Of a DNA stretch of 39,817 nucleotides, positions 2,659 through 6,630 are shown one piece after another. Within the stretch, counting starts at the first letter, position 1. Each line of letters begins with the position of its first letter. The notes below the pieces were generated by a model. The model was not told the origin of the DNA, searched no databases, and was given only the letters and a program-made list of their open reading frames with translations. The DNA lies in the sequence record MT808983.1; one strand, 5' to 3'. Position numbers and translations under genes: made by a program. The DNA is from Escherichia phage TM1.

Positions 2659-5340
2659 ATGAGCGTCATCTCTATTGACAAACACGACTTCTCTGATGTG
2701 TCGAACGCCATTGAGCCGTTTAACCTGCTGGCTGACCACTACGGGCAAGACCTTGCAGTCAAGCAGCTTCAGCTTGAGCATGAGGCATACACTGAAGGCG
2801 AGCGACGTTTCATCAAGAACCTTGAGCGCCAGACCGAGCGCGGTGAGATGGCAGACAATCAGGTCGCCAAGCCTTTGATGCAGACTCTGGTCCCTAAGAT
2901 TGCGCAAGCCGTCAAGGAGTGGCATGAAGGCCCAGACGGGAAGCTGTCAACCTCTCGTCCTAGCGTAGCGTTCACCATGTTGAGCACTGAAGATAAGGCC
3001 GTCAAGGACCGCTCTCTGCGCATCTCCTGTGAGTCTGCTGCGGTTATCATACTGAAGGTCATCCTCTCCAAGCTGGTAAAGCCTGAAGGGATACCGATTA
3101 CACCTATGGCCTCCGCGATAGGTCGCACACTTGAAGATGAGATCCGCTTCGGTCGAATCAGAGACAAGGAGCAGGAGCACTTCAAGAAGGCGATAGCTGA
3201 TAACCTGAACAAGCGAGCTGGGGCATCCTATAAGAAAGCCTACATGCAAGCGGTTGAGACCTCCATGCTGGAGCAAGGTCAACTGGAAGATGCGTGGGGA
3301 ACTTGGAGTCCGACAGAGGCGGTACACGTTGGCATCAAGATGCTTGAGATTGTCATACAGTCTACACAACTGGTCGATATTAAGCGTTATGGTGCTGGCA
3401 ATGCAGCGGCTGATGTTGAGATGGTCCACCTGTCAGACTTCTGGGTCAAGAAGATGGCACAACGTGGGTTCAGCCTTGCGGGTATCGCACCAGTCTATCA
3501 GCCTTGCGTAGTTCCACCTAAGCCGTGGACGGGTGTCGTAGGCGGTGGGTACTGGGCCAAAGGTCGCAGACCGTTACCATTGATTCGCTTAGGGTCTAAG
3601 TCTGCGGTAGCACGTTACGAAGACGTGTACATGCCGGAAGTCTATGACGCTGTGAACATCATCCAGAATACACCTTGGAAAGTTAACAAGAAGGTTCTGG
3701 ACGTGGTGAACATGGTCGAGAAGCTGAACAACACGCCTATTGACGACATCCCTCAGATGGAGCCACTAAAGCCTGAGGACTATGCGGGTGAGACCGATGA
3801 AGAACTGAAGGCATGGAAGAAAGCTGCTGCTGGTATCTATCGACGCGAGAAGGCCAGACAGTCGCGCAGATTGTCACTGAGCTTTATCGTCAACCAAGCG
3901 AACAAGTTCTCTCAGTTCAAGGCCATCTGGTTTCCATACAACATGGATTGGCGAGGTCGTGTCTACGCTGTCCCGATGTTCAACCCTCAGGGTAACGACA
4001 TGCAGAAGGGTCTCCTGACTCTGGCAGTCGGCAAGCCTATTGGTGCTGACGGTTTCAAATGGCTGAAGGTACACGGTGCAAACTGCGCGGGTGTTGATAA
4101 AGTCACCTTCGAGGAGCGAATCAAGTGGGTGGAAGACAATCACGACAACATTATGGCTGCTGCTAAGGCACCGATGGATAGTATTGAGTGGTGGGGCAAG
4201 TTAGACTCTCCGTTCTGCTTCCTTGCGTTCTGCTTCGAGTATGCTGGCGTAATGCACCACGGCCTGTCTTACTCCTGCTCGCTGCCGATAGCGTTCGATG
4301 GGTCCTGCTCTGGTATTCAGCACTTCAGCGCGATGCTTCGTGACCACATCGGTGGACATGCAGTAAACCTAACTCCATCCGGCAAGGTTCAAGACATCTA
4401 CCGCATCGTGTCTGACCGCATCGCGGAGGAACTCAAAGTCCTGCTTGTTAACGGTACGGATAACGAGATGGTGACTCACGAGGACAAGAAAACTGGTGAG
4501 ATTACCGAACGTCTCAAGCTGGGGACACGAGAGCTGGCCCGTCAGTGGCTGACCTACGGTATGTCACGTAAGGTCACTAAGCGTTCGGTCATGACTCTGG
4601 CCTACGGGTCGAAAGAGTATGGCTTCGCAGACCAAGTATACGAGGACATCGTGATGCCAGCGATTGACTCAGGGTCTGGCGCTATGTTCACTGAACCAAG
4701 CCAAGCGTCTCGCTTCATGGCTAAGATGATTTGGGAAGCTGTGAGTGTGACCGTGGTTGCTGCGGTTGACGCGATGAAGTGGCTTCAAGGTGCTGCCAAG
4801 CTGCTGGCTGCTGAGGTGAAGGACAAGAAGACTGGAGAAATCCTGAAGCCTTGCCTTCCGGTACACTGGGTAACACCTGATGGTTTCCCGGTCTGGCAGG
4901 AATACCGCAAGAAGGATACAACCCGTCTGAACCTGATGTTCTTAGGGTCATTCAACCTTCAGCCTACAGTCAACAAAGGCACGAAGAAAGAGCTGGACAA
5001 GCACAAGCAGGAGTCAGGCATTAGCCCGAACTTCGTCCACTCACAAGATGGCAGCCACCTGCGGAAGACTGTAGTCCACACTCATCGCAAGTATGGCGTG
5101 ATGTCATTCGCAGTGATTCACGATAGCTTCGGGACCATCCCGGCTGACGCTGAGTATCTGTTCCGTGGTGTCCGTGAGACGATGGTAGAGACATACCGCG
5201 ACAACGATGTGCTGCTTGACTTCTACGAGCAGTTTGAATACCAGCTTCACGAGAGCCAGCGCGACAAGCTGCCTGAGCTTCCGAAGAAAGGTAAACTAAA
5301 TATCGAAGACATCTTGTCTTCAGACTTTGCATTCGCTTAA
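2659..5340 (+). CDS. gp1: Single-subunit DNA-directed RNA polymerase (T7 gp1 homolog, 893 aa)
   Basis: Collinear similarity to recalled T7 RNAP along the whole length (e.g. PYNMDWRGRVYAVPMFNPQGNDM, DGSCSGIQHFSAMLRD, HDSFGTIPADA, C-terminal SDFAFA). Confidence 0.97.
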   Translation: MSVISIDKHDFSDVSNAIEPFNLLADHYGQDLAVKQLQLEHEAYTEGERRFIKNLERQTERGEMADNQVAKPLMQTLVPKIAQAVKEWHEGPDGKLSTSRPSVAFTMLSTEDKAVKDRSLRISCESAAVIILKVILSKLVKPEGIPITPMASAIGRTLEDEIRFGRIRDKEQEHFKKAIADNLNKRAGASYKKAYMQAVETSMLEQGQLEDAWGTWSPTEAVHVGIKMLEIVIQSTQLVDIKRYGAGNAAADVEMVHLSDFWVKKMAQRGFSLAGIAPVYQPCVVPPKPWTGVVGGGYWAKGRRPLPLIRLGSKSAVARYEDVYMPEVYDAVNIIQNTPWKVNKKVLDVVNMVEKLNNTPIDDIPQMEPLKPEDYAGETDEELKAWKKAAAGIYRREKARQSRRLSLSFIVNQANKFSQFKAIWFPYNMDWRGRVYAVPMFNPQGNDMQKGLLTLAVGKPIGADGFKWLKVHGANCAGVDKVTFEERIKWVEDNHDNIMAAAKAPMDSIEWWGKLDSPFCFLAFCFEYAGVMHHGLSYSCSLPIAFDGSCSGIQHFSAMLRDHIGGHAVNLTPSGKVQDIYRIVSDRIAEELKVLLVNGTDNEMVTHEDKKTGEITERLKLGTRELARQWLTYGMSRKVTKRSVMTLAYGSKEYGFADQVYEDIVMPAIDSGSGAMFTEPSQASRFMAKMIWEAVSVTVVAAVDAMKWLQGAAKLLAAEVKDKKTGEILKPCLPVHWVTPDGFPVWQEYRKKDTTRLNLMFLGSFNLQPTVNKGTKKELDKHKQESGISPNFVHSQDGSHLRKTVVHTHRKYGVMSFAVIHDSFGTIPADAEYLFRGVRETMVETYRDNDVLLDFYEQFEYQLHESQRDKLPELPKKGKLNIEDILSSDFAFA

Positions 5341-5354
5341 CAGGAGAGAGAGTT

Positions 5355-5555
5355 ATGGAATTTGCACACAAGCAGACTGGCGTTAAGGGTGGTACTCAAA
5401 TCGTGACCGTAACAGAACACAACGGCAAGGGTCTGGTGAAGACCACTGTCATCCCTACCGAGATGTCAAAGCAGCTTAACGTCCAGTTCAAGTGGCTGGT
5501 TAAGCAGGTGGAGCAGACGCACGAGCAAGTCCTTAAAGAGGCGGCAACCAAATGA
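5355..5555 (+). CDS. Hypothetical protein (66 aa) between RNAP and gene 1.1
   Basis: ATG with SD AGGAGAGAG; T7 has no gene at this position. Confidence 0.5.
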   Translation: MEFAHKQTGVKGGTQIVTVTEHNGKGLVKTTVIPTEMSKQLNVQFKWLVKQVEQTHEQVLKEAATK

Positions 5556-5629
5556 CATACCTACAGTTACTGGCCCTGTGGCTGGGAGCACTAGCAGTAT
5601 TCACTCTAATCCAACGCAGAAGAGGTTAA
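5552..5629 (+). CDS. Possible small hydrophobic peptide (25 aa, MTYLQLLALWLGALAVFTLIQRRRG)
   Basis: ATG overlaps the upstream stop (ATGA); predicted single transmembrane helix followed by a basic tail; very short, so tentative. Confidence 0.2.
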   Translation: MTYLQLLALWLGALAVFTLIQRRRG

Positions 5630-5633
5630 CCAT

Positions 5634-6113
5634 ATGTTCGGTAAGTCAAAACTTAAGGCACAAATCAAAGAGTTGAGCATGAAGGTGGCATACTTGGAGC
5701 GAGTCGTAGAGGTCCGGGACAAGGACAACGAGCGGCTGAAGGTTAAACTTGCTGAATCAGAGCGTAAGCGCCTAACGCCACCAGCTGCTGTAACTGTCAA
5801 GCGTATGGTAGGCATCAAGTTCAAGGCTCTATTCAACGGTATGTACCAACCGGCTGAGTTCAAGACTGGGCCGGGTAACTGTGGGAAGAACGTTAAGCAC
5901 TTCACCATCTCGAAGACTGAACGCACACTGACCATCCACCAGCACCACATAGACGGGTCTCAGAAAGACTTTGAGTACCGACTGAGCGACATCGACGGTA
6001 GAATCCAGTATGACTATGAGCTGGTTAAGGTATACGGTGAGGAGGCTGAACAGGAACGTATAGTCCAAGCCTTCCGCAACAGACACGATTCGTACCCTAA
6101 ACTATCACTATAG
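5634..6113 (+). CDS. Hypothetical protein (159 aa) with coiled-coil-like N-terminus, accessory gene
   Basis: ATG with SD GAAGAGG; its stop codon TAG lies inside the following phage promoter; no recognised motif. Confidence 0.6.
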   Translation: MFGKSKLKAQIKELSMKVAYLERVVEVRDKDNERLKVKLAESERKRLTPPAAVTVKRMVGIKFKALFNGMYQPAEFKTGPGNCGKNVKHFTISKTERTLTIHQHHIDGSQKDFEYRLSDIDGRIQYDYELVKVYGEEAEQERIVQAFRNRHDSYPKLSL

Positions 6114-6119
6114 GATTAG
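6096..6119 (+). promoter_or_regulatory. Phage-RNAP promoter (taaACTATCACTATAGGatt), phi1.1 position
   Basis: Family consensus; predicted +1 G at 6113; overlaps the 3' end of the upstream ORF. Confidence 0.8.
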
Positions 6120-6160
6120 ACTCAAGGTCATGACTCAAAGTCGTGGCCTTCATGATTAAC
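6118..6160 (+). ncRNA. Conserved leader hairpin, candidate RNase III processing site (R1.1 position)
   Basis: agactcaaggtcatgactcaaagtcgtggccttcatgattaa; one of three copies of a conserved AGACTCAAGGTCAT...GGCCTTTATGATTA element. Confidence 0.5.
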
Positions 6161-6195
6161 CCTAACCTAACGTAAACTACTGGAGATTTAACAAC

Positions 6196-6375
6196 ATGTA
6201 TCAGAACACTATCAACTTCGAGCGCATCCGTGAACGTCAACAGACTGAAGATTATATTCCGAAGGGCCGCAAGCTGAACAAGACCAAGCGTGGCGGTGGT
6301 GTCAAGGGTGCTTTCCGTAACGCTGAAGGCAAAGACTCTCTGGTCAACCAAGAGAAATACTTCGTAGGAGCATAA
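6196..6375 (+). CDS. gp1.1: gp1.1-like small basic protein (59 aa)
   Basis: Contains GRKLNKTKRGGG, matching the GRKLNKTKR motif recalled from T7 gp1.1; position after RNAP and the phi1.1 promoter. Confidence 0.7.
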   Translation: MYQNTINFERIRERQQTEDYIPKGRKLNKTKRGGGVKGAFRNAEGKDSLVNQEKYFVGA

Positions 6376-6378
6376 GCC

Positions 6379-6630
6379 ATGAGTAAACGTTGGTTATTCG
6401 ACGCATCACCGAGCCAGTGGTCATCGTTAGGCCGGACCCACAGAGAGATGAGCGAGGCAGGACTTGAGGTCAGAATGGATGACCTGCCGTGCTCCGGAAA
6501 GACTCTGGTCCAAATCATTGAAGCAGACGATGGGAGGATTCTGGTCACGCGCAAATTTAACGAACACGAAATCTTTAGCTGTGAGCAATGGTGCTTGCAG
6601 CAACTGAATGCTTACAGGAGCTGGAAATAA
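6379..6630 (+). CDS. gp1.2: gp1.2-like protein (83 aa; the T7 homolog is a dGTPase inhibitor)
   Basis: Position between gp1.1 and ligase, similar length and C-terminal WK as recalled for T7 gp1.2; internal similarity is weak. Confidence 0.55.
   Translation: MSKRWLFDASPSQWSSLGRTHREMSEAGLEVRMDDLPCSGKTLVQIIEADDGRILVTRKFNEHEIFSCEQWCLQQLNAYRSWK

Follow-up and report, generated by a model that had tools for sequence, protein, structure and literature searches.

A conserved 25-codon micro-ORF and a gene 1.05 homologue in an accessory early cassette of Escherichia phage TM1

What lies between the RNA polymerase (RNAP) gene and the next phage promoter of Escherichia phage TM1, and what could it do? 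We analyzed a stretch of 39,817 nucleotides (nt) from this phage (sequence record MT808983.1), hereafter the window, which belongs to Kayfunavirus (K1F/EcoDS1 group, Studiervirinae; T7 family). In phage T7, as an earlier note on this DNA had pointed out, gene 1 is followed directly by the phi1.1 promoters: the T7 record, inspected at 5600–6500, has the end of gene 1 at 5822, phi1.1A at 5848, phi1.1B at 5923, and gene 1.1 at 6007. In the window, positions 5355–6113 form a three-cistron accessory cassette of the early region, placed between the phage RNAP gene and a phi1.1-type promoter, and the open reading frames (ORFs) of 66, 25, and 159 amino acids (aa) that the note had described there are all present in the ORF list. 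The middle one, a 25-codon micro-ORF, is the most conserved element of the interval and our strongest result, while the 159-aa ORF is a homologue of gene 1.05 of phage T3. We regard these statements of identity as close to certain. The features of the interval are as follows.

2659–5340: gene of the T7-type RNA polymerase, 893 aa (ORF list)
5342–5346, plus strand: AGGAG Shine-Dalgarno sequence of the 66-aa ORF, read from the sequence, 8 nt before the ATG
5355–5555, plus strand: 66-aa basic protein of family phrog_8082, ATG start (ORF list, profile match)
5552–5629, plus strand: 25-codon micro-ORF, MTYLQLLALWLGALAVFTLIQRRRG, predicted single-pass inner-membrane peptide, N-terminus out and RRR tail in (ORF list)
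5622–5626, plus strand: GAGGT Shine-Dalgarno sequence of gene 1.05, within the Arg-Gly codons of the micro-ORF, 7 nt before the start, conserved in the alignment of relatives
5634–6113, plus strand: gene 1.05 homologue, 159 aa, long form without membrane helix (Pfam, PHROG, EcoDS1 annotation, AlphaFold2)
5643–5774, plus strand: coiled-coil helix, residues 4–47 (AlphaFold2 and heptad register), hypervariable among relatives
5790–6032, plus strand: conserved 1.05 beta domain, residues 53–133, six strands, with the Gly-rich hairpin loop G79-x-G-x-C-G-K-x-V87
6036–6086, plus strand: C-terminal helix, residues 135–151, followed by a promoter-encoded tail (AlphaFold2 model)
6096–6118, plus strand: phage RNAP promoter (−17 to +6), equivalent of phi1.1, core 6105–6114, supplying the stop codon of gene 1.05

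The layout of the cistrons suits translational coupling: the TGA of the 66-aa ORF and the ATG of the micro-ORF overlap as ATGA, and the TAA of the micro-ORF is separated by 4 nt from the ATG of the 159-aa ORF, whose Shine-Dalgarno sequence lies inside the upstream ORF. No sigma-70-like promoter or terminator was found in 5200–6400 and no phage promoter between 2576 and 6105, so that the cassette would share its transcripts with gene 1. Just upstream of the RNAP gene (start 2659) stands a complete phage promoter, at 2567–2589 (core 2576–2585), and the phage enzyme could thus transcribe its own gene together with the cassette. The gene order of the window is RNAP, cassette, promoter, gene 1.1 (PF08200), and gene 1.2, and the order from RNAP to gene 1.1 around gene 1.05 is the same in EcoDS1, T3, phiSG-JL2, and KP32. 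The interval 5300–6200 has matches in 210 phage genomes, the best being Hafnia phage yong1 (91.8% identity), followed by ST31, P762, and EcoDS1, all of them Kayfunavirus.

The 25-aa membrane peptide had been put forward as a possibility, which undersold it, since the micro-ORF is present, conserved, and under frame-specific selection. It was found in all Kayfunavirus-type loci read, its stop always at the same codon: in 18 of the 18 relatives first collected, in three further loci (L024, L025, and L027) and, as a 26-codon version with a GTG start, beside a gp1.05 of only 50% identity. Viral and metagenome contigs scanned for an exact 17-mer yielded 30 more loci, all with the stop after RRRG; about 50 further metagenome matches were judged to be chance and were excluded. 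A tblastn search with the peptide itself returned no match, probably an effect of the low-complexity filter. By blastn, at least part of a 201-nt region centered on the micro-ORF is carried by 218 phage records, many of which cover 5547–5634 only, and a Kayfunavirus-type 1.05 domain (identity at least 60%) is found in about 84. The micro-ORF is kept without gene 1.05 in K1F, CR44b, EPr2, PRF-SP2, and LM33_P1. Both this independence from gene 1.05 and the genus-wide conservation are new. The window ORF has all the features of these orthologues, namely 25 codons, a hydrophobic core, a QRRRG end, and a start overlapping the upstream stop.

Is the micro-ORF translated, or is its sequence conserved for another reason? 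It could be an untranslated stretch, held constant as the ribosome-binding region of gene 1.05, as a coupling spacer, or as sequence upstream of the promoter. Its last five codons are near-invariant even synonymously and contain the Shine-Dalgarno sequence of gp1.05, and the ORF, whose translation is a prediction, is shorter than the usual gene-caller minimum. However, the selection is specific to one frame. In 58 loci, with 43 different coding sequences and 25 different peptides, there is no internal stop, and the ratio of nonsynonymous to synonymous change (pN/pS) of 0.31 in the ORF's frame compares with 0.99 and 1.12 in the two others. Codons 4–19 show abundant synonymous change, and the replacements are conservative, a hydrophobic residue for a hydrophobic one. 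The Arg23 codon is either AGA or CGT, and the stop codon is TAA, TGA, or TAG in an unchanged position. In 55 of the 58 loci, a Shine-Dalgarno-like GAGG or GGAG precedes the start by 11–14 nt, and start, length, and stop remain intact in genomes where gene 1.05 does not follow. The RNA of the region folds no better than its shuffles (z = 0.5), and no Rfam match was found. We therefore consider a purely cis-acting element quite unlikely and retain the reading as a translated gene.

The last five sense codons (5612–5626, CAA CGC AGA AGA GGT, with two rare Arg codons) almost never vary among 29 loci. This near-invariance extends to genomes that have no downstream gene and thus no use for a Shine-Dalgarno sequence there, and it is unexplained.

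Residues W10, A15, Q21, R23, R24, and G25 of the peptide are invariant. Residues 4–20 have a mean Kyte-Doolittle hydropathy of 1.8–2.4 and are followed by the Arg-rich end; by the positive-inside rule, an established principle of membrane topology, the prediction is a peptide that crosses the inner membrane and keeps its tail inside. We found a single annotated copy, GA2A_08A of Escherichia phage GA2A (ALP47775.1, "hypothetical protein"; MTDLKWLALWLAFLAVYTLIQRRRG), which is orthologous to the micro-ORF of the window, with the same length, position, and RRRG end, although seven residues differ. Tiny membrane peptides recur in T7-group phages. The T3 gene 1.5 protein (L019 2715–2792, MWLILFAIVATLGLMVADDNIWPDC) is likewise hydrophobic and 25 aa long, but has no sequence kinship to the window peptide, and its C-terminus is acidic whereas that of the window peptide is basic. 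Small membrane proteins and type I toxins of 19–35 aa in the E. coli host are alike in size, in having a single hydrophobic helix, and in a membrane-directed or unassigned role, but show no sequence relationship to the peptide.

What, then, is the 159-aa protein that follows? The earlier note had suggested a comparison with T3 gene 1.05-type genes, and this comparison provides the answer. The Pfam family PF25755 (Phage_T3_1_05) matches residues 58–128 with an E-value of 2.2e-24 and 85.7 bits against a cut-off of 27, covering positions 2–73 of the 73 in the profile. The protein also matches phrog_8103 (E 2e-59), and the EcoDS1 annotation calls its orthologue gp1.05 and places a promoter across the end of the gene. 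When 1.84 billion cluster representatives were searched exhaustively without a profile, 55 relatives came up at E ≤ 0.001, two of which are spurious (Cys-rich repeat proteins), and PF25755 is matched by 57 of the 57 aligned family members. In 57–58 sequences, the window protein included, G79, C83, V87, Q103, F113, Y115, G122, and R123 are invariant. They cluster in a Gly-rich hairpin (G79-x-G-x-C83-G-K-x-V87), in the segment Q103-x-H-x-D-G-x2-K-x-F-x-Y115, and in the pair G122-R123, and the family motifs F-x2-G-x-G-x-C-G-K-x-V, Q-x-H-x-D-G-x2-K-x-F-x-Y, and G-R are all present in the window protein. The loop G-x-G-x-C-G-K-x-V of the beta hairpin (residues 79–87, 5868–5894) resembles the glycine-rich phosphate-binding loops of kinases and nucleotide-binding proteins, a resemblance that we take as a lead only.

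For the cassette proteins, PHROGs gave families of unknown function only, Pfam gave PF25755 only, PADLOC gave no match, and NCBIfam gave noise only. A profile search of the PDB with gp1.05 returned coiled-coil noise only, and members of the 1.05 family carry no additional fused domains beyond such noise. In the papers searched, gene 1.05 and gp1.05 occur in genome tables only, with the function listed as unknown and no activity described for any member; nothing useful was found on T7-like early membrane proteins or on K1F-group transcriptomics. The 159-aa gene thus belongs to a named but uncharacterized family and is not a new kind of system. The view of the cassette ORFs as accessory genes without an assigned function stands, and homology to a known housekeeping gene, which would have spoken against it, was not found for the 1.05 family.

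Source records give the protein another name. A record identical to the 159-aa ORF (100%) is called "microtubule-binding protein [Escherichia phage TM1]", and GenBank uses the same name in phages yong1 and IME278. In our searches, the name corresponds to sub-threshold coiled-coil noise only (USHBP1 at E 0.075 and scattered Rootletin-type and other coiled-coil hits to single members). To our knowledge, bacteria have no microtubules. The PF25755 match refutes such a function for practical purposes, and we give it practically no credence; the label is an annotation error that has passed from record to record.

How is gp1.05 built? An AlphaFold2 model, computed from a 57-sequence alignment, has a mean predicted local distance difference test score (pLDDT) of 94 and consists of a helix (residues 4–47), six strands (53–133), and a second helix (135–151). 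The charged, coiled-coil-like N-terminus noted earlier corresponds to the first helix, which is modeled with a pLDDT of about 97 and has a zipper-like heptad register, with I11, L14, V18, L21, V25, R28, N32, L35, and L39 at the a and d positions. The protein has no N-terminal transmembrane helix: it begins directly with the amphipathic helix, and a coiled-coil linker connects the N-terminus to the beta domain. Foldseek against BFVD recovered Gp1.05 of phiSG-JL2 (E 5e-7, template-modeling score 0.84) and the KP32 protein (E 1.7e-6, 0.82). In BFVD, the fold is that of uncharacterized early proteins of Autographiviridae, from phages of Escherichia, Salmonella, Klebsiella, Pectobacterium, Dickeya, Pseudomonas, Ralstonia, Aeromonas, and Delftia. 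Among solved structures, the beta domain has no informative relative. Small beta-barrel folds (Sm/Hfq, SH3-like) scored too low for homology and lack the two very long bent strands and the Gly-rich hairpin of the 1.05 domain.

The relatives of gp1.05 fall into three architectures, a picture that is new. The bare domain measures about 80–105 aa, as in T3 gp1.05 (90 aa). The coiled coil plus domain, about 150–177 aa, is the type of the window. The third form, about 151–193 aa, carries an N-terminal transmembrane helix before the coiled coil and the domain. It accounts for about 11 of 55 family representatives, and its maximal 19-residue Kyte-Doolittle hydropathy reaches 1.9–3.7 at residues 1–6. 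Anchored proteins lie between gene 1 and gene 1.1 in phiSG-JL2 (Salmonella, Teetrevirus, 169 aa), KP32 (Klebsiella, Przondovirus, 186 aa; labeled "fusion protein, other name gp1.05"), and Erwinia phage pEp_SNUABM_09 (193 aa); one also occurs in a metagenomic contig. The window protein thus differs from those of phiSG-JL2 and KP32 in lacking the membrane helix. It shares with the T3 gene 1.05 family the homologous beta domain with all invariant residues, the locus, and the 3′ end in the phi1.1 promoter. T3 gp1.05, in contrast, is a bare domain whose gene is preceded by its own promoter and an origin, whereas in the window the protein includes a coiled coil and the gene lacks a promoter of its own. 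The coiled coil is also the part that varies most: among 24 Kayfunavirus-type proteins, the mean pairwise identity falls from 0.75 in the beta domain to 0.56 in the C-terminal part and 0.44 in the N-terminal helix (minimum 0.10), and in 18 loci a nearly constant domain is combined with at least seven coiled-coil sequences that look unrelated to one another.

Could the micro-ORF and gene 1.05 be two halves of one protein? The 25-aa peptide would then be the detached membrane helix of an ancestral tethered gp1.05, and the two products would reassemble, with the peptide recruiting the coiled-coil protein to the membrane. In sister genera, this locus does hold proteins in which membrane helix, coiled coil, and domain are fused. 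Only 4 nt separate the end of the peptide ORF from the start of gp1.05, and the two are coupled in translation. Peptide and fused proteins agree in predicted topology, with a short outer N-terminus and basic residues following the helix, and the sum of 25 and 159, 184 aa, is in line with the fused proteins (169–193 aa). The pair is also retained in L027, where the 66-aa gene is absent, the start of the micro-ORF overlaps the RNAP stop (TAATG), and gp1.05 comes next. On the other hand, about half of the genus, K1F included, has the peptide without gene 1.05, so the peptide can work alone. Conversely, two loci (L021 and L026) have a helix-less gp1.05 with the same MFNxKLKARIAELE start but no micro-ORF. 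A natural read-through fusion was seen in none of the loci of the 17-mer scan, the peptide offers only five cytoplasmic residues to a partner, and the similarity of the membrane helices is indistinguishable from shared composition. No micro-ORF stands beside the anchored or bare gp1.05 genes of the T3-like and other phages examined. We consider reassembly of a split anchor rather unlikely. We grant similarly little probability to a broader version, in which the micro-ORF encodes a core membrane micro-protein of the whole of Kayfunavirus, descended from the anchor of an ancestral tethered gp1.05 and acting early on the inner membrane, alone in K1F-type phages and with the coiled-coil gp1.05 here, for example in exclusion or counter-defense.

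Programmed +1 frameshifting toward the end of the micro-ORF could also produce a membrane-anchored fusion. Relative to the micro-ORF, gene 1.05 lies in the +1 frame, which is open from 5610 on, and ahead of the stop come the rare codons AGA AGA and an SD-like AGAGG. But CGC AGA AGA GGT TAA holds no slippery site, as CGC, AGA, and GGT in the P-site cannot re-pair in +1. In the prfB model, the SD-like element lies 3 nt upstream of the P-site codon, whereas here it overlaps that codon. The same sequence is present in genomes without gene 1.05, and gp1.05 has a good start of its own. Frameshifting of the prfB type was rejected for want of a slippery site, and a frameshifted fusion in general appears very improbable.

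The distribution of gene 1.05 bears on what the cassette may do. The gene is absent from K1F, CR44b, EPr2, PRF-SP2, and LM33_P1 and from about 14 of the 30 further loci of the 17-mer set; in genomes without it, the micro-ORF stop lies 9–10 nt before the promoter core. T7 lacks the whole cassette. The cassette thus appears dispensable, given that T7 does without all of it and K1F and about half of the genus do without gene 1.05. The junction in the genomes without gene 1.05 (L028 975–1075, which is K1F, and L030–L033) reads ...AGAGGTTAAcc(c)taaactaTCACTATAGG. A deletion between the short ACC repeats that flank gene 1.05 in the window, one possible origin, would leave just this sequence. Records matching part or more of the micro-ORF region number 89 named for Escherichia and 59 for Salmonella, and those with any 1.05 domain 22 and 38, all of these counts being rough upper bounds; gene 1.05 seems to be kept more often in Salmonella-infecting members.

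On these grounds we propose a function, tentatively and with somewhat less than even confidence. The cassette would be made early, from the same transcripts as the RNA polymerase. The micro-protein would insert in the inner membrane, its Arg-rich tail facing the cytoplasm. gp1.05 may dimerize through its zipper, and its beta domain may bind a component of host or phage close to the inner membrane on the cytoplasmic side, a location suggested by the sister genera, where an N-terminal helix of its own anchors the protein in the membrane. The role would be a conditional interaction with the host (takeover, exclusion, or counter-defense) rather than core replication, because T7 and about half of the genus do without gene 1.05 and the coiled coil of gp1.05 is hypervariable. 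Taken as a whole, identity of the cassette and function together, this explanation leans slightly to the probable side.

Several points weigh against it. The timing of expression would follow from position only. The gp1.05 of the window has no membrane helix of its own, the other helix-less forms (L021 and L026) have no micro-ORF nearby, and membrane proximity may not apply to the helix-less form. Hypervariability of the coiled coil can reflect relaxed constraint instead of an arms race. Alternatively, gp1.05 may be a replication or transcription helper tied to the primary origin, as T3 and phiSG-JL2 have an annotated origin that overlaps the 5′ end of gene 1.05 and lies among the phi1.05 and phi1.1 promoters. 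This overlap is the sole hint in that direction. T7 and K1F replicate without gene 1.05, many homologues are membrane-anchored, and the window has no promoter or origin-like element before the gene; we consider such a helper role unlikely. The conditional host interaction remains our preferred reading.

The cassette is ordinary for the accessory early region of T7-like phages, and nothing points to a new kind of mechanism. It matters for other reasons. A 25-codon gene is apparently present throughout Kayfunavirus, a much-sequenced and therapy-relevant genus, and has escaped annotation almost everywhere, since it falls below the usual minimum length of gene callers. The neighboring gene 1.05 carries, as "microtubule-binding protein" in several records, a wrong name. 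The three forms of gp1.05 and its presence or absence within one genus provide a natural comparison for the role of a widespread early protein of Autographiviridae. If the peptide and gp1.05 do counter host defense or mediate exclusion, they would have a bearing on the host range of K1F-like therapeutic phages.

The promoter downstream of the cassette is one of a series. With up to one mismatch allowed, the window contains 12 copies of its core, TCACTATAGG, where 2.55 would be expected; 0 of 100 shuffles reach 12, and ten plus-strand copies have the upstream consensus c-c-t-a-a-a-c-t-a in common. An equivalent of phi1.1 is also annotated in EcoDS1, CR44b, T3, and phiSG-JL2. With the numbering set by analogy with T7 (core 6105–6114, +1 at G6113), the stop codon of the 159-aa ORF, TAG at 6111–6113, occupies promoter positions −2 to +1 and thus lies inside the promoter, as had been noted. 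The promoter provides a stop in two of the three frames. Most relatives use for gene 1.05 the TAA of the promoter's CTAAACTA, at −15 to −13, and the T3 gene 1.05 stop likewise falls within the phi1.1 promoter. Compared with L018 and L007, the window has a 1-nt deletion near 6098 (CC to C). The reading frame shifts there, so that the gp1.05 tail differs from that of its closest relatives: ...PRFVP becomes ...HDSYPKLSL, ending at the TAG of TATAGG. The segment 6113–6162, which starts at promoter +1, contains a hairpin with a 12-bp stem (about 6124–6150, −17.7 kcal/mol, z = −1.9) that resembles, by sequence and position, the RNase III site R1.1 annotated in T3 and phiSG-JL2.

The first cistron of the cassette encodes a basic 66-aa protein (isoelectric point 9.5) that matches phrog_8082 over its full length (positions 1–66 of 66, E 5.8e-40). 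Its 153 homologues, of 66–71 aa, are found on contigs of about 40 kb; neither the protein nor any of the homologues has a Pfam domain, and its profile has no PDB match. Residues A4, H5, G12, G13, G24, K25, P34, H56, and E57 are invariant, the N-terminal two-thirds being conserved and the C-terminal third more variable. The gene stands directly after gene 1 in all relatives except L027, and the family is restricted to the genus. The interval from gene 1 to phi1.1 is a hot spot for accessory genes. Some relatives have an extra ORF of 76–86 aa between the RNAP gene and the gene for the 66/71-aa protein, at the following loci.

L001, 1557–1787 (EcoDS1)
L011, 1967–2197
L033, 252–482 (LM33_P1)
L020, 1942–2202

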